This document shows, in pieces, positions 867 through 12,626 of a stretch of DNA of 12,626 nucleotides. The notes below the pieces were generated by a model that was not told where the DNA came from, ran no database searches, and worked only from the letters and a program-made list of their open reading frames with translations. Position numbers and translations under genes: made by a program. The first letter of the stretch is position 1, and every line of letters starts with the position of its first letter. Origin of the DNA: a virus (lineage: Duplodnaviria > Heunggongvirae > Uroviricota > Caudoviricetes); IMG/VR virus record IMGVR_UViG_2695420456_000020. One strand, 5' to 3'.

Positions 867-1340
867 TTAGTGATGTTTTGGCTGCACCGCAACATACATT
901 TCGATATCCCAGTACCCATCTTCCGCGCCATTGTTCAAATAAACCTCGAAGCAGGGCTTTGGTAACATTTCATAAGCACTGTCCTGCAAGAGACTATTAA
1001 AGAACTGATACCAGGGTTTAGCAAAATCATCACCGACTACACGAGCTACCGCCACCGCATACTGACCACCTGTAATTTCTGTCAGAATGACGCCCTCACT
1101 GTTTTCGGGAAGCGTAAAGTAACCCGGCACCGTCACGACGGTGTCGCAGCGTAATTTTTCGGCGGGTGTTTCATCTGGATTGTCGTAATAGACAGCAACC
1201 CACTCCTTCGGCACAATATTTTTGCTATCTACCCACATCATCAACTGCTCAAAGCCTTTCTTTACCGTCTGTTCCCACGGGCCAACGAGATGGAAACCTG
1301 CAACGGTACGTTTCTCTTCCTGCTTAATCTCGTAGTTCAT
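867..1340 (-). CDS. sbmC: DNA gyrase inhibitor SbmC/GyrI (157 aa)
   Basis: ATG at 1338-1340 preceded by GGAGG (4 nt spacer); stop at 867-869. Translation [30 protein letters not shown]... matches E. coli SbmC as I recall it. Confidence 0.93.
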
Positions 1341-1458: not shown

Positions 1459-2625
1459 TCAGGCCTTATGGTGGAAATAATCACTCAGGCGAGAAAACAT
1501 GCTGCCTTCCCCGACAGATTCCAGGGTAACCAGCGGCCAGTGCGCCACCTGTTTATCACGGTCGTAAAGTTCAATTTCCCCTACCCGCTGATGGGCGCTA
1601 ATTGGCGCGGTGAGTTCTTTACCATCAAGGGTATATTTGGCTTTGATATGTGGAATTTCGGCTTTCGGTAGCACCATCCAGAACTCTTGTTCCGTTCCCA
1701 GGTCGATATTTTCTTTATCGCCATACCAGATGCGTTCCGTTCCGACCTTTTTCCCACGGTGCAAAATTTGCACCGTAGTAAAGTTTTGTTGCCCCCAACG
1801 CAGTAATTTTCTTGCCTCTTCCTCACGACCTTTTGCACTGTCAGCCCCCATTACCACTGCAATGAGACGACGCTGCCCATCTACAGCCGAAGCAATGAGA
1901 TTAAACCCGGCACCAGAAGTATGACCCGTTTTCAGGCCGTCAACATTCATGGTTTTATCCCACAACAACCCGTTACGGTTTTGCTGGGTGATACCGTTCC
2001 AGGTGAGACTTTTCTCACTGTACATATGATAAAACTCGGGCTCGCCGTGGATGATAGCACGAGAAAGCACAGCTAAATCATAAGCCGAGCTATGCTGGCC
2101 AGGTGCATCCAGACCATGCACTGTTTCAAAATGCGTATCCTTGAGATGCAGCTTCTCGGCATAGTTGTTCATCATTTCAACAAACTGCCGTTGCCCACCG
2201 GCAATATAGTCAGCCAGAGCAACACAAGCGTCATTTCCGGAATCCACAATTAAACCACGGCTTAAATCACGTACCGATACGCGATCGCCCTCTTTCAAAA
2301 ACATCAGTGAAGAACCGACAAACACCGGATTATCTTTCGCCCACGCATCGCGCCCCACGGTGACAATATCGTCTGGCGTAATGCGATGACTATCGATAGC
2401 GCGATCCACGACATAACCCGTCATCAGCTTTGTCAGGCTGGCGGGATTGCGCTGTTGATGCTCATTACCCGCGGTGAGGATCTGACCGGTGGTGTAATCC
2501 ATCAATACCCAGGACCCGGCATGAATCTCTGGAGGCTGAGGTGAAAAAGGAATGTTTTCCGCCGCAAAACCAGACGATAAGTTAAAAACGAACAAAGAAG
2601 CAGCAATAATAAGACGGCGTTTCAA
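1459..2625 (-). CDS. dacD: D-alanyl-D-alanine carboxypeptidase DacD (PBP6b), 388 aa
   Basis: Translation contains a signal peptide (KRRLIIAASLFVFNLSSGFA) and the SxxK (SLTK), SGN and KTG motifs of class-C PBPs. Likely TTG start at 2623-2625 (giving the MKRRLII N-terminus) with a GAGG-type SD 8 nt upstream; the six-frame track extends to a second TTG at 2631. Confidence 0.93.
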   Translation of the reverse strand: MKRRLIIAASLFVFNLSSGFAAENIPFSPQPPEIHAGSWVLMDYTTGQILTAGNEHQQRNPASLTKLMTGYVVDRAIDSHRITPDDIVTVGRDAWAKDNPVFVGSSLMFLKEGDRVSVRDLSRGLIVDSGNDACVALADYIAGGQRQFVEMMNNYAEKLHLKDTHFETVHGLDAPGQHSSAYDLAVLSRAIIHGEPEFYHMYSEKSLTWNGITQQNRNGLLWDKTMNVDGLKTGHTSGAGFNLIASAVDGQRRLIAVVMGADSAKGREEEARKLLRWGQQNFTTVQILHRGKKVGTERIWYGDKENIDLGTEQEFWMVLPKAEIPHIKAKYTLDGKELTAPISAHQRVGEIELYDRDKQVAHWPLVTLESVGEGSMFSRLSDYFHHKA

Positions 2626-2833
2626 CAGCAAACCCTCAGGAGTTTCAAATAGCTGTTCTTTTTACGGAAATACTTATGAACTGGCTGGAATAAAGTGCAA
2701 GAAAATGTGACTACCCTCTCATTTTTATCTGACATGATCTGTTGCCACTCGCTGCCAAATTGTGGCGCTAAAGCTGATTAGCACGGTGATATTTGATACT
2801 CTGGCAGACAGCAGAAATAACGGATTTAACCTA

Positions 2834-2896
2834 ATGATGAATGACGGTAAGCAACAATCTACCTTTTTGTTTCACGATTACGCGCAACACCCCTGA
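2834..2896 (+). pseudogene. sbcB: 5' fragment of exonuclease I gene sbcB (first 16 codons MMNDGKQQSTFLFHDY), then a foreign junction and stop after 4 more codons
   Basis: ATGATGAATGACGGTAAGCAACAATCTACCTTTTTGTTTCACGATTAC encodes the ExoI N-terminus as I recall it (MMNDGKQQSTFLFHDYETFG...). From about 2883 the frame reads AQHP then TGA (2894-2896) and unrelated prophage sequence follows. Confidence 0.8.
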
Positions 2897-3251
2897 GAAC
2901 CGCCATGAACAAGGGTTTCATGATTTGTGATTTTAGTTTGGTACGCAATTTGGTACACAACACAATTTTCACTTCAGCGGGTAGTCATCAAACTCACCAT
3001 AACGAGCATCGTTAATGATGTATGTGATCACCACAAATATCACATCTGGACTAGTTCCGTCTTCATGCGCAGGTATCTGTTCACGCCTCCCTTTCTGCAA
3101 ATCCTAAAGATGAGATTTTGGGGTTTTGGGATATCTTTTTATCCTCAGTTCTCTATCAATTCTACAAAGCAGTAATGAACCATCACTATGTGATAGTGAG
3201 GCATCCGCTACATTAAGCGCAGAGAAATGATGCAGTGGTGGGCAGACTGGC

Positions 3252-3279
3252 TTGATGAAAAGGTGGAGTGATCCACCTT
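3252..3279 (-). terminator. Rho-independent terminator downstream of the tailspike gene
   Basis: Inverted repeat aaggtgga (3260-3267) / tccacctt (3272-3279) with loop gtga; on the minus strand the stem is followed by a T-rich tract (ttttcatc). Confidence 0.55.
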
Positions 3280-3422
3280 AACCACTATCGAAGAGCACAA
3301 AGCCTTGCAATCCAGTGCAAAGCTTTGTGTGTCTCAGTTTTGTCTCATCAACCACCGCAAGTCATCGATCGATTGACACTTGGATGATAGACTTCATGCT
3401 TTTTATGGCTAATTTCTGAATT

Positions 3423-5654
3423 TTAAATGGAAATCCTTGCGCTTATATACGCGCTATTTCTTATTTCAGGCTGCTTATTGGATGGATTTAAATTCATAGA
3501 TACACCATTTGTTCCAGTAATTATATTAAGTGTTCCTGATGACAAATCTATTGATGTAGCGGTGATTCCCACAGACTCAGTTGGAGATATATATGCTACA
3601 TTCAATTGTTCAGAACCTGTTATTTTTGAGCGTTCATTAGATATAAAAAAATCCACCTTAGCCCCACTTGTTTCACTTCCATTTTTCTTCAAATTGAACG
3701 TTGACTTGTAAATATTTCCTCTGTATACCTGCCTTCTATATTGACCATTTATTGACACTGGTTGATTGAAATTTGTCATATCAGAAATTGGGTACGTTTC
3801 ATACATATGCGCCCCTTGCGTGCCTATAAATGTTTGGTTAAATCTACCATGAGAGCCTGATACAACTATCATGTCATATCCTTCAATCCACCCTTCTTTG
3901 TGATTTATTGCATATCTAGGAATATCTCCAAAGAAAGCATTTCCATTAATATGGATTGATGACGCCTTATCAATGCTGGAAGGTTCAGGGGTGATTAGTA
4001 TCAACGAAATAACTGAAGATGATACGTCAGGTGTTGCACCACATGTTCTAGAGATATTGTTATCACTTACCTTAGCACTACCATTTTTCCAAACTGATAT
4101 CACCGAACACCCTGAAGAAAATTCATTATCAGAATATATCTCAACTATATTATCACTACATACAACAGATCGCCAACCAGCAACAACAACACCTTGAACA
4201 AATGTTCCAGATGAAGGCGATGTTAGAAAGAATTTATTTCCTATTATTGTTACATCATCATGAGGAAACTTCGTTCCAGTATAATTACCATTAGTCCCAA
4301 ACCATGCACCAATCCTAGCATAACCTCTTATAATATTATTACTAAAAGAAATACCAATAAGTTTTTCGTTATTCCCAAGACAATAAAGATTAACACCTCT
4401 TGAATTTATATTATTTGTTAGTATTTGATTGTTATTTATGCTCAAATTGATAATGGTAGCTGTTGTTGAGTTACAACCAATAACTGATGAGTCTTGAAAA
4501 TATGCCCCATCAAGTATGTTATCAGAAATAATAATATTTCTATATACTCCCCCAGCATGTCCTATTTCAATTTGCAAATTTGAGCTTTTGTTTTGAAGTT
4601 TATTTCCGCTAATAATTATATTTGTGCTAGGTGTGCCATCAACTTTAATTCCAAGTATTGCGTTTGGTTGAGCGGAATCAATCTGTATATCACAATTCCA
4701 CGTAATATGGTCCACCTCCATATCACACGACCCGTGACAGTCTTTGACTGTTACATCGGTTGATCCTGCAATATCAACAAAATGTTGATCATGTCTCCCT
4801 TGCTCCACTCTCTCTATAGTTACATTTTTGCTATGACCTAAACCGATTAAATCACCATAATCCCTTGTTGGGGTTGCGCTACCGTCAGTGATTGTAAAAT
4901 CTCTAAAAACAATATTGCCGGCAGCTCCATAGCCAGTTCTAGTATCATAATATTTATTTGTTATCAAGACACCATCCATCCCCCTCTCAGTGGGTAGTCT
5001 CTGAATGATGGTAGATCCAGCACCAGCCCCACAGAAAGTTACGTTAGCGGGAACTCTAATGCATGAATAATTATGACCTGATTTTTCAATGCTGACGTAA
5101 TATTTACCTGGAGGAAGATAAATAATCCCACCACCTAGAGACTCAAGATAGTCCAATGCAGAGTTAATTGCTATTGTTGAATCATTTGACTTTCCAGATT
5201 CACCAAACATTTGTGGTGTAACTACAATAAAAGAATCAATCAACTGCTGAATTGTTAGTCCAGACGAAGTACCAACATGCCCCGCACCATAATTTGACTC
5301 TATTATTGTTCTAAACTGATCAGGGTCATACTTCAGCACATTAGGAAAATAGAACTGCTGCGCACCGTATGCATCATAAACAGCCATTGAATGGCCTTGC
5401 ACAGTTACGAACTTGGCAATCTGTCCGTTATATACAGGATACCCGCCAGAGTTAATGATGATTGGCTGTGCAACAGGAACGTGAGAGCCGTCTTCGTTCT
5501 CCACATAAACCTGAATCTGGTTTTCAGGGTTTACCGGGTCAGTGTCAATTTTACCGATATAAATTTTGCCATTAGCTACGGCTTTAAAAGAACGCGCCAT
5601 AGTGAAGAGTTGCGAAGGCATCCCAATTACAACATTTGGAGTTATATCAGGCAT
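3423..5654 (-). CDS. Tailspike protein (743 aa): P22-gp9-like head-binding N-domain fused to a pectate-lyase-like right-handed beta-helix receptor-binding domain
   Basis: Start ATG at 5652-5654 with AGGA 8 nt upstream. N-terminus [43 protein letters not shown]...[10 protein letters not shown] aligns with the P22 tailspike head-binding domain ([43 protein letters not shown]...). After about residue 113 the sequence has a pectate-lyase-3-type start ([30 protein letters not shown]) and repeated N/D-x-I beta-helix rungs. The track ORF begins at an upstream TTG (5807), which I treat as non-coding. Confidence 0.9.
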
Positions 5655-6065
5655 ATTAGTCATCCTGTTTGAAAATTTAGATATTGAAGAAAACGGAATG
5701 ACTGCAGACAAAGATGCAATTGTTTTGAAAAATAATCTTCTATTCACTTTAAAACCATGCAATATGAACAAAATAATTATTTTACAACAGACAAGAATCT
5801 TGATCAACAGACATATGCTTTATGCGTTTAATGCGTCACTTAAAAATAACAAGTACTACTTTTATTCCTATCGTCCATGATTTTCATTTTCAAATATTAT
5901 TAAATAACAATTCCTATTTATAATATCTGTCATTTAATTTGCTCCAGATACAAGGAATCGCCGCAGCATGGCTACGGTTGGTATTTGTTTGGTTTTTGAA
6001 CTACGAAAATTTCGTAGTGCTATCCATCAAGGCCATCGCCGCTTAGTTGCTGCGGTGAATTTTGG

Positions 6066-6091
6066 GCATAAAAAACCCAGCCGAAGCTGGG
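6066..6091 (-). terminator. Rho-independent terminator directly downstream of ant
   Basis: cccagc (6076-6081) / gctggg (6086-6091) stem with loop cgaa; on the minus strand it is followed by TTTTTT (A-run 6070-6075 on plus), 20 nt after the ant stop. Confidence 0.7.
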
Positions 6092-6110
6092 TCGTTGCGT
6101 TGGTTATCTG

Positions 6111-7046
6111 TCAGTAGTTATGTACTGAAGGAGGTAATTCTTTATTCTTAAGTCTCATCCATGCGGAAAGATTCGTTGGTCCGTCTGGCTCATTGATATC
6201 AACATCTCGTGTGTGATTGATTAAAACGTCTCTCGCCATATCGATAATACGGGAGAACTCATAACCGCAGTCATGACATCTTCCTGAATAGTTCGATTGA
6301 ATTTGTTTCAGCGCCGGATACAGTTCGCGGAATAATGCCTGTGAGCGGTTGGCATAATCCCATAACCATACAAGGCTGTTTGCTTCTTTTGCAGAAAGCT
6401 CGTTTGCTTTCTTCTCTTGTTTGCCGATGAACTCACCTTCAAGTGGAACTCGAGCTGCAAGTGACAGTGCTTCGGTAAACTGCTCCTCACTGATTTCTTT
6501 GTACGAACATCCAAAATGGGATTTAAGTGACGACCACATGGTGATCATCGCCTTAGCCTGTTTTTCTTTTGGCAGATACTGACCGCGACTCATGACGAGT
6601 TGTTTAATGGCTTCCTGCTGTTCAGTGGTGATTTTACCCGGCAACGCTTTTTTAGCTTTGCGTGGGTTAACTACATGGCCTTTAGTCCAGTAGTCATGCA
6701 GCACGCTAAAGCATTCCTCCTGGTACTGAATCAGTTTATCGCGGATGTCAGCTCGAACTTTCTCAGGGTTGATGCTGAACAGCCATCCATTTAACTTCTT
6801 CAAAGGAAGGCAGAGTAGCTTACGAAGCTTCCCATCAGCGGCAACCATATTCATATGAATACAGTTGAACTTATCTAGTTGTTTCATAAGTTTTTGTTGC
6901 TGAGTACCCCAACTCATTCCAAGGTTTTCAACGATTGGCTTCATCGCAACGTATGCAACTCCGGCAGCCATGGCGGTGATAATTTGCTGACCGTTGAATG
7001 GTACGTAAGAGGTGTTCACTGCTTCTAAAATTGCTATACTATTCAT
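6111..7046 (-). CDS. ant: Antirepressor Ant (311 aa), P22 Ant-like
   Basis: ATG at 7044-7046 with GGAG 10 nt upstream. Translation [43 protein letters not shown]... matches P22 antirepressor as recalled, and the gene sits immediately downstream of arc. The track ORF extends upstream to 7112, which I treat as non-coding. Confidence 0.88.
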
Positions 7047-7115
7047 GTTGGTTTTTCTCCACGGATTTACTGACAACCGAAGCCCTGACTGTTCCCGCAG
7101 TTGGGGCTTCAACTT
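7047..7115 (+). ncRNA. sar: Candidate sar-like antisense RNA (antisense to the ant ribosome-binding site and arc-ant spacer); ends approximate
   Basis: P22 makes a ~69-nt antisense RNA from a promoter inside the 5' end of ant, reading toward arc. Here a plus-strand -10-like TATACT (7035-7040) lies just inside ant, and a stem gaagccc (7079-7085) / gggcttc (7104-7110) lies in the arc-ant spacer. Inferred from position only; the 3' T-tract is weak. Confidence 0.35.
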
Positions 7116-7276
7116 TACGCGCCAATGCGCCCTTCCTTCTTAAAGCTTTCCATTACTCTCTGATAAATCTCAGAGTTAACAGACCGACCATTCTCTTCCG
7201 CCACCTTGCGTACCAAATCCAATACTTCTTTAGGCCACCGCAAATTGAACTGCGGCATCTTGCTCATTCCTTTCAT
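7115..7276 (-). CDS. arc: Arc repressor (53 aa, ribbon-helix-helix)
   Basis: Translation [53 protein letters not shown] is near-identical to P22 Arc as recalled. ATG at 7274-7276 with GAGGTG 3 nt upstream; stop at 7115-7117. Confidence 0.95.
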
Positions 7277-7290
7277 ATTCACCTCACAAT

Positions 7291-7311
7291 ATAGGTCCAC
7301 CGTGGACCTAT
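7291..7311. promoter_or_regulatory. Mnt operator (Omnt): perfect palindrome ataggtccaccgtggacctat
   Basis: Perfect 10-bp arms around a central C, identical to the P22 mnt operator core (AGGTCCACGGTGGACCT on the other strand), lying between the Pant -10 and the arc start. Confidence 0.9.
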
Positions 7312-7339
7312 TGAGAATATAGTAGAGTGCTTCTATCAT
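7311..7339 (+). promoter_or_regulatory. Candidate Pmnt promoter (-35 TTGAGA 7311-7316, 17-bp spacer, -10 TATCAT 7334-7339), overlapping and divergent from Pant
   Basis: Hexamers with correct spacing read directly from the plus strand, 28 bp upstream of the mnt ATG; P22 has overlapping divergent Pant/Pmnt promoters. Confidence 0.6.
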
Positions 7340-7366: not shown

Positions 7367-7621
7367 ATGGCTAGAGATGATCCGCACTTTAACTTCCGTA
7401 TGCCTATGGAAGTAAGGGAGAAATTAAAATTCAGGGCGGAGGCGAATGGGAGATCAATGAACTCCGAGTTGTTACAAATCGTCCAAGATGCTCTATCAAA
7501 ACCATCGCCTGTGACTGGCTATCGCGACGAAGCTGAACGCTTGGCTGATCAGCAGGCAGAGCAGTTCAAGACTGTTGTGTTTGAGACACTTAAAAAGATT
7601 TATGGCAAGGATGATAAATAA
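7367..7621 (+). CDS. mnt: Mnt repressor (84 aa, ribbon-helix-helix; maintenance of ant repression)
   Basis: Translation MARDDPHFNFRMPMEVREKLKFRAEANGRSMNSELLQIVQDALSKPSPVTGYR... matches P22 Mnt as recalled. ATG at 7367 with GGAG 7 nt upstream; stop TAA at 7619-7621. Confidence 0.95.
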   Translation: MARDDPHFNFRMPMEVREKLKFRAEANGRSMNSELLQIVQDALSKPSPVTGYRDEAERLADQQAEQFKTVVFETLKKIYGKDDK

Positions 7622-8157
7622 TGCTGCACACAATTCATTTCTTATGCCCCGTTAACACCGCCACTGTTGGGCAACTTCAGAACCACTGTCTCACCGCATT
7701 ATCTCAAGGCGCAACTGAATTAAATATCCATATATCAAGTCAGGGAGGGGAAACTGCCGCTGGTTTTACTGCGTATAACTTTCTTAAGTCACTCCCTGTT
7801 ACCGTTAGAACTCACAACATAAGCAATGTTGAATCCATAGCTAATATCGTTTTCCTGGCTGGCTCAGAACGTTTCGCAAACCCATTATCAAGATTCCTGT
7901 TACATCCTCTATTATGGGGCTTTGCCACCCCAGCCGCCGACCATGCCAGATTGAGAGAGTACGGGAAATGCCTCGATAACGATCTTGATCGCTTCGTTGA
8001 GACGTTCAATATCGACATCGGAACCCATATTAGGTGGGCATCCCTGATAGCAGACTCGACCATTTTGGATGCTAACAAGGCTCTTGAGCATGGCATAATT
8101 AATTCCATAAAAACTGCAAGGCTGGTATCCAATCAGGCAAACTGGTGGGTTGTTTGA
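7621..8157 (+). CDS. Compact ClpP-fold (S14-like) serine peptidase, 178 aa, translationally coupled to mnt
   Basis: ATG at 7621-7623 overlaps the mnt stop (TAATG). The translation aligns by eye with ClpP: ISSQGGETAAG vs INSPGGSVTAG, Ser72 in NVESIAN vs GQAASMG, His95 in RFLLHPL vs RVMIHQP, Asp150 in ADSTILDANKALEHGIINSI. It lacks the ClpP N-terminal region. Confidence 0.75.
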   Translation: MLHTIHFLCPVNTATVGQLQNHCLTALSQGATELNIHISSQGGETAAGFTAYNFLKSLPVTVRTHNISNVESIANIVFLAGSERFANPLSRFLLHPLLWGFATPAADHARLREYGKCLDNDLDRFVETFNIDIGTHIRWASLIADSTILDANKALEHGIINSIKTARLVSNQANWWVV

Positions 8158-12479: not shown

Positions 12480-12563
12480 ATCGTTGCGTTGCTGATCATT
12501 AAGACCGGAAAACGCCTGTTGTGAACCGCCCCGGGTTTCCTGGAGAGTGTTTTATCTGTGAAC

Positions 12564-12626
12564 TCAGGCTGCCAGATCATCGTTTCCGATGGAAGCATAA
12601 TAAGCTTTTTCTGCTTCTGCCGGAGG
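12564..12626 (-). CDS. 3' end (20 codons, ...PPAEAEKAYYASIGNDDLAA) of an upstream virion/ejection gene running off the window
   Basis: Minus-strand frame open from the window edge to TGA at 12564-12566, with E. coli-like codon usage. A second frame is also open to 12467, so frame assignment is uncertain. Confidence 0.3.
   Translation of the reverse strand, partial: PPAEAEKAYYASIGNDDLAA

Follow-up and report, generated by a model that had tools for sequence, protein, structure and literature searches.

Organization of the locus

The window analyzed here, a stretch of 12,626 nucleotides, is a segment of the E. coli chromosome in which the host genes yeeA, sbmC, and dacD are followed by the right end of a P22-like prophage. 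This Lederbergvirus-type prophage is inserted between sbcB and dacD, and comparison with an empty sbcB-dacD site places the end of the host DNA at about position 2882, within a duplicated 5' end of sbcB in the interval 2632-3213. The features are as follows.

867-1340, minus strand: sbmC, host gene
1459-2631, minus strand: dacD, host gene
3214-5989: block common to copies at other chromosomal sites (about 98% identity), delimited by recurrent blastn end points at 3214 and 5989
3423-5654, minus strand: tailspike gene, 743 codons plus stop, open from the ATG at 5654
3426-3806, minus strand: C-terminal all-beta sandwich domain, residues ~617-743
3831-5198, minus strand: right-handed parallel beta-helix, residues ~153-608
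4328-4440: most AT-rich stretch, with 60-nt windows of 18-20% GC
4773-4793, minus strand: family-conserved HDQHFVD motif, residues 288-294, in invariant or nearly invariant columns and aligned with the YGFDPH stretch of AlgE4
4896-5189, minus strand: match to PF12708 (Pect-lyase_RHGA_epim), residues 156-253, 32.4 bits, E 1e-7 with the segment scanned alone
5190-5315, minus strand: linker or neck, residues 114-155, with megablast matches ending at gene nt 338-383, low pLDDT, and 34% identity to the AV101 TSP2 neck
5316-5654, minus strand: head-binding domain (virion attachment), residues 1-113, PF09008 E 3.6e-65, also matched by Sf6 and P22 PDB chains, 44.0% GC
6074-6093, minus strand: terminator-like hairpin between ant and the tailspike gene
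6111-7112, minus strand: ant, upstream of the tailspike gene
7115-7339, minus strand: arc, upstream of the tailspike gene
7367-7621, plus strand: mnt, upstream of the tailspike gene

A ClpP-like open reading frame and homologues of the ejection genes 16 and 20 lie farther upstream. The tailspike gene is thus downstream of the gp20, gp16, mnt, arc, and ant homologues, with the prophage end downstream of it, and as the last late gene, 3' of the ejection genes and the ant/immI moron, it occupies the position of a Lederbergvirus tailspike gene. The ATG at 5654 is preceded by AGGA 8 nt upstream and we take it as the start, a longer TTG-initiated frame reaching 5807 being a mechanical product; in RefSeq this gene, of 2232 nt, likewise appears as 'phage tailspike protein'. 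There are no meaningful repeats around the gene within the window. The prophage is defective because the end of an IS3-family element (12505-12626) cuts the homologue of gene 20, which encodes an ejection protein, at about 12505; its open reading frame has 327 aa in the window versus 449 aa in strain DP051. We also note that the 178-aa frame immediately after mnt (7621-8157, plus strand) matches Pfam CLP_protease (E 4e-12), an unusual passenger in an ant/immI moron.

A P22-type head-binding domain joined to an AT-rich receptor-binding part

The tailspike has the N-terminal head-binding domain of its P22-like (Lederbergvirus) counterparts, PF09008 spanning residues 1-113, as the preliminary description proposed on the basis of similarity to P22 gp9. 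Matches to the PDB chains of the Sf6 (gp14) and P22 (gp9) tailspikes are confined to residues 1-117/121. At the DNA level, megablast against 50,697 phage records recovers only gene nt 1-383, at 85-95% identity, and the similarity to HK620, Sf6, CUS-3, and epsilon34 ends at nt 338-383. The zone where likeness to other P22-like tailspikes ends is therefore the linker or neck, and beyond residue ~120 the P22 gp9, Sf6 gp14, and HK620 tailspikes are without sequence similarity to it. Homology to P22 gp9 along the whole length, the outcome that would have counted against a chimera, is not seen, the P22 chains stopping at residue 117, and the beta-helix shows none of the homology expected of a P22 gp9 endorhamnosidase. 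P22-like phages are known to join a conserved head-binding domain (residues 1-115) to receptor domains of unrelated kinds (PMC2629481). The architecture is thus familiar, and only the receptor-binding module is uncharacterized.

Base composition changes along with homology, and it is not uniform along 3423-5654. The receptor-binding part (residues 114-743) has 35.8% GC and 24.0% GC3, versus 44.0% and 42.5% for the head-binding part (residues 1-113), 44.3% for ant, and 45.3% elsewhere in the prophage, which bears out the visual impression that this part is more AT-rich than the N-terminal domain and the immI flank; the suspected 60-bp stretches near 20% GC are the windows of 18-20% at 4328-4440. 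The 5' intergenic region (5655-6110), not mentioned in that description, is likewise AT-rich at 34% GC, and AT-richness recurs in a homologue of 69% identity from another P22-like contig (39.7% versus 49.2%). The composition could in principle reflect the amino-acid make-up of beta-helix rungs rather than foreign origin, and Ile, Ser, and Asn are indeed commoner in the receptor-binding than in the head-binding part; the GC drop is, however, largest at third codon positions (24% versus 42.5%), and homologues are found in unrelated phages and hosts, and we regard this explanation as very improbable.

The beta-helix, the C-terminal domain, and a candidate active site

Domain searches and structure prediction place the receptor-binding part in the PF12708/AlgE-like class of right-handed beta-helices, and the tailspike thus has the beta-helix receptor-binding domain expected of a P22-like one; the structural readings rest on monomer models. 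The anticipated pectate-lyase-3-type motif is present at residues 156-253, although its score of 32.4 bits is above the gathering threshold of 27 for the isolated segment only, and no PF12708 match is reported in a scan of the full-length tailspike. All six beta-helix rung motifs cited earlier are found, within residues 348-506. The helix is followed by a beta-sandwich of ~130 residues. We considered a C-terminal intramolecular chaperone of the Peptidase_S74 type and rejected it, since neither this nor any other Pfam family matches the C-termini of 25 family members and the model is a beta-sandwich.

Seven residues (D257, D289, H291, D294, Q324, D326, and H366) are invariant or nearly invariant across the family, and the HDQHFVD motif together with D257, Q324, D326, and H366 forms a candidate catalytic center. 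The catalytic motif of AlgE/AlgG-type enzymes is YG(F/I)DPH(D/E). A phmmer alignment sets H291, D294, and A296 opposite Y149, D152, and H154 of AlgE4, which we take to be the functional residues of its YGFDPH active-site stretch, and the groove is therefore probably the same as in AlgE4, although the chemistry is predicted not to be that of the epimerases. Compared with the AlgE4 and AlgE6 A-modules and the alginate epimerase/lyase 8ja4, only the Asp of YGFDPH is kept, the Tyr position being occupied by His and the His position by Ala or Cys. The tailspike also differs from these enzymes in lacking Ca-binding R-modules and in being part of a phage virion. We therefore rejected membership among the AlgE mannuronan C5-epimerases and lyases on the basis of the catalytic motif, with H291, D294, and A296 at the aligned positions. 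The predicted-structure neighbors of the beta-helix are mostly lyases, hydrolases, and tailspike depolymerases, and one of the top neighbors is PfbA, an adhesin.

Exchange of the module within E. coli

The full tailspike gene is present in seven of 5426 complete E. coli genomes at 98.6-99.1% identity, at the following positions.

sbcB/dacD: VE-T2 and VE-T10
argW-intS: MSHS 472, 2017.18.04CC, OHT76-1, and ET729
a third chromosomal site: GDSC2BY4G

Among nine copies at no fewer than three chromosomal sites, the receptor-binding parts are 99.2-100% identical, whereas the head-binding alleles are 94-97% identical, and six RefSeq copies compared with the window give the same contrast (99.2-99.4% versus 94-97%). 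Variable sites number 35 in the 339 nt of the head-binding part versus 21 in the 1893 nt of the receptor-binding part. The sharpest case is an IMG/VR provirus (L022), with no mismatches to the window in gene nt 253-2232 and 20 in nt 60-252. The beta-helix and sandwich are thus a mobile cassette of low-GC codon usage that is joined to different head-binding alleles, and nature offers here an exceptionally clear case of recombination where the head-binding and receptor-binding parts meet. This comparison of alleles, together with the varied N-terminal anchors found in the family, upholds the earlier proposal of modular exchange of the receptor-binding part. The exchanged block in E. coli is nonetheless often the whole gene with its flanks (3214-5989, the tailspike gene with 209 nt on its 3' side and 335 nt on its 5' side) and not the C-terminal part alone.

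The open reading frame is intact in all nine copies examined. Substitutions at 14 of the 21 variable sites in the receptor-binding part are nonsynonymous and at seven synonymous, which is compatible with relaxed selection. The window allele, common to L022, differs from the six RefSeq copies by five amino acids (I364, V518, K586, I648, and K650), and I364 matches a hydrophobic consensus of the family. The AT-rich upstream intergenic stretch at 5655-5989 (~31-34% GC) moves together with the tailspike gene.

A rare family with varied anchors

The module family is rare. The 90% cluster that contains the tailspike counts 190 sequences as members. A word-indexed search of 5.8 billion clusters returned 17 relatives, and an exhaustive HMMER search over 1.84 billion representative proteins returned 48 at E <=1e-30, mostly full-length cassettes, none of which is characterized; a profile search through the word-indexed database gave no further members, whereas the exhaustive search did add some. 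Members with a named source come from prophages of E. coli, from Paenibacillus genomes, and from Vibrio phage eugene. The homologues in Vibrio phage eugene 12A10 (AGN51528.1), in Paenibacillus prophages, and in metagenomes have the same helix and sandwich cassette at full length, at 29-39% identity (69% for P0002), but they differ from the window tailspike in their N-terminal anchors and hosts, and none has been characterized. Six kinds of N-terminal Pfam anchor occur in 42 members (Head_binding, Tail_spike_N, Phage_tail_fib, Phage_T7_tail, Mtd_N, and End_N_terminal), and in distant relatives the same cassette is thus joined to other phage anchors.

The 69%-identical homologue, on L002 (JGI contig Ga0564113_00127), has the 5' 539 nt of its tailspike gene, the head-binding domain and neck, inverted relative to the rest (region 1-783). 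A perfect inverted repeat of 100 nt borders the inverted part, its left arm lying at the contig end, and the gene would be whole again with the 583-nt segment turned round; the arrangement is either a true inversion or an artefact of assembly.

The likely receptor and function of the tailspike

Prophage tailspike type is known to go with the O-type of the host (PMC10408124), and we assigned the serogroups of the carriers from PGAP wzx/wzy gene names. Four of the seven are O82 (GDSC2BY4G, 2017.18.04CC, MSHS 472, and ET729) and three are not, VE-T2 and VE-T10 being O48 and OHT76-1 O131. Since O82 wzy occurs in only seven of the 5426 complete genomes, the O82 O-antigen appears to be the likeliest receptor, although the naive Fisher P of 3.4e-11 for the overlap of four is inflated by shared ancestry, and the O82 carriers are not independent, three of them lying at argW and possibly constituting one lineage. 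Virion and ejection genes accompany the tailspike gene in GDSC2BY4G and ET729, both O82 and at different loci, whereas the prophages of the O48 and O131 carriers are remnants. The sbcB/dacD attachment site is ~20 kb from the O-antigen locus, and where that locus recombines, the correspondence of tailspike type and O-type may be lost. Among the products of the O82 gene cluster are a protein resembling asparagine synthetase, a cytidylyltransferase, and a member of the CDP-glycerol glycerophosphotransferase family.

The tailspike TSP2 of the Agtrevirus phage AV101 is experimentally O82-specific (PMC10791037). Only two of the complete E. coli genomes contain DNA like its beta-helix, and both are O82 (NZ_CP136025.1, 1942901-1944283, and NZ_CM132283.1, 1372838-1374228), and the approach of reading O-type from tailspike type therefore works for this module. 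TSP2 and the window tailspike possibly share a receptor, and prophages with either type of receptor-binding module are found in O82 strains of E. coli; TSP2 nevertheless has a different N-terminal anchor and a beta-helix body unrelated in sequence. Homology between the helix bodies was rejected, since only residues 111-172 align (E 2e-5). This neck and first cap (window 5139-5324) is 34% identical over some 70 residues to TSP2 residues 244-313, and may be a shared adaptor element or a recombination site.

We propose, with somewhat more confidence than doubt, that this is the tailspike of a P22-like prophage with a glycan-cleaving, mobile beta-helix cassette that most likely acts on O82 and sets host range. 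The protein would form trimers, with residues 1-113 attaching it to the virion, and the beta-helix would have a groove, lined by D257, D289, H291, D294, Q324, D326, and H366, in which a surface polysaccharide of the host is bound and cleaved. The substrate would most likely be the E. coli O82 O-antigen, and the cassette would thus set the host range. Both the depolymerase activity, which could be that of a hydrolase or a lyase, and the role in host range are predictions.

Several other readings merit consideration. The cassette may target another surface glycan (another O-type, capsule, colanic acid, or ECA), with the O82 link reflecting the shared ancestry of its carriers, as suggested by the O48 and O131 strains among them and by the common argW-intS context of three of the four O82 carriers. 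GDSC2BY4G is also O82 with the gene at a different locus, however, and the non-O82 carriers have degraded prophages, with the sbcB/dacD site ~20 kb from the O-antigen locus. The best PHROG of the full-length protein (phrog_8280) is labelled 'colanic acid degradation', but we rejected this label as the receptor-binding part scanned alone does not match it and matches phrog_2234, 'tail spike', instead. We consider a glycan other than O82 rather unlikely, and it is improbable to a greater degree that the beta-helix only binds its glycan in the manner of an adhesin, or alters it as, for instance, an esterase would, without depolymerizing it. Two features point away from a depolymerase, the lack of conservation of the catalytic His and Tyr of AlgE and the likeness to PfbA, but invariant Asp, His, and Gln residues are clustered on successive rungs across a family of 20-40% identity, and lyases, hydrolases, and tailspike depolymerases make up most of the structural neighbors.

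The gene could also be without current function in this genome, as the leftover of a dead prophage, which is compatible with our favored explanation and to which we give only slightly less than even weight. The IS3-family insertion in the gp20 homologue, the location of several other copies in prophage remnants, and the ratio of nonsynonymous to synonymous sites (14 to 7) are in accord with it, whereas the intact frame in every copy and the presence of the tailspike gene in a 44-kb IMG/VR provirus prediction argue against it. As the window prophage is defective, the tailspike gene here is probably an intact relic. More speculatively, and with considerable doubt, the helix and sandwich cassette may constitute an uncharacterized depolymerase family with an active center (HDQHFVD ... 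QID ... GH) unlike that of AlgE, and a second O82-specific module independent of AV101 TSP2 that possibly cuts the O82 repeat at another bond.

The range of serogroups open to a phage is decided by tailspike cassettes, which are also in use as typing and decapsulating reagents. This gene leaves the understanding of such systems unchanged, but its cassette, being rare, unstudied, and plausibly O82-specific, is a cheap and testable addition to the catalogue of tailspikes and O-antigens. We also note that GDSC2BY4G carries both tailspike types, that of the window and that of AV101 TSP2.
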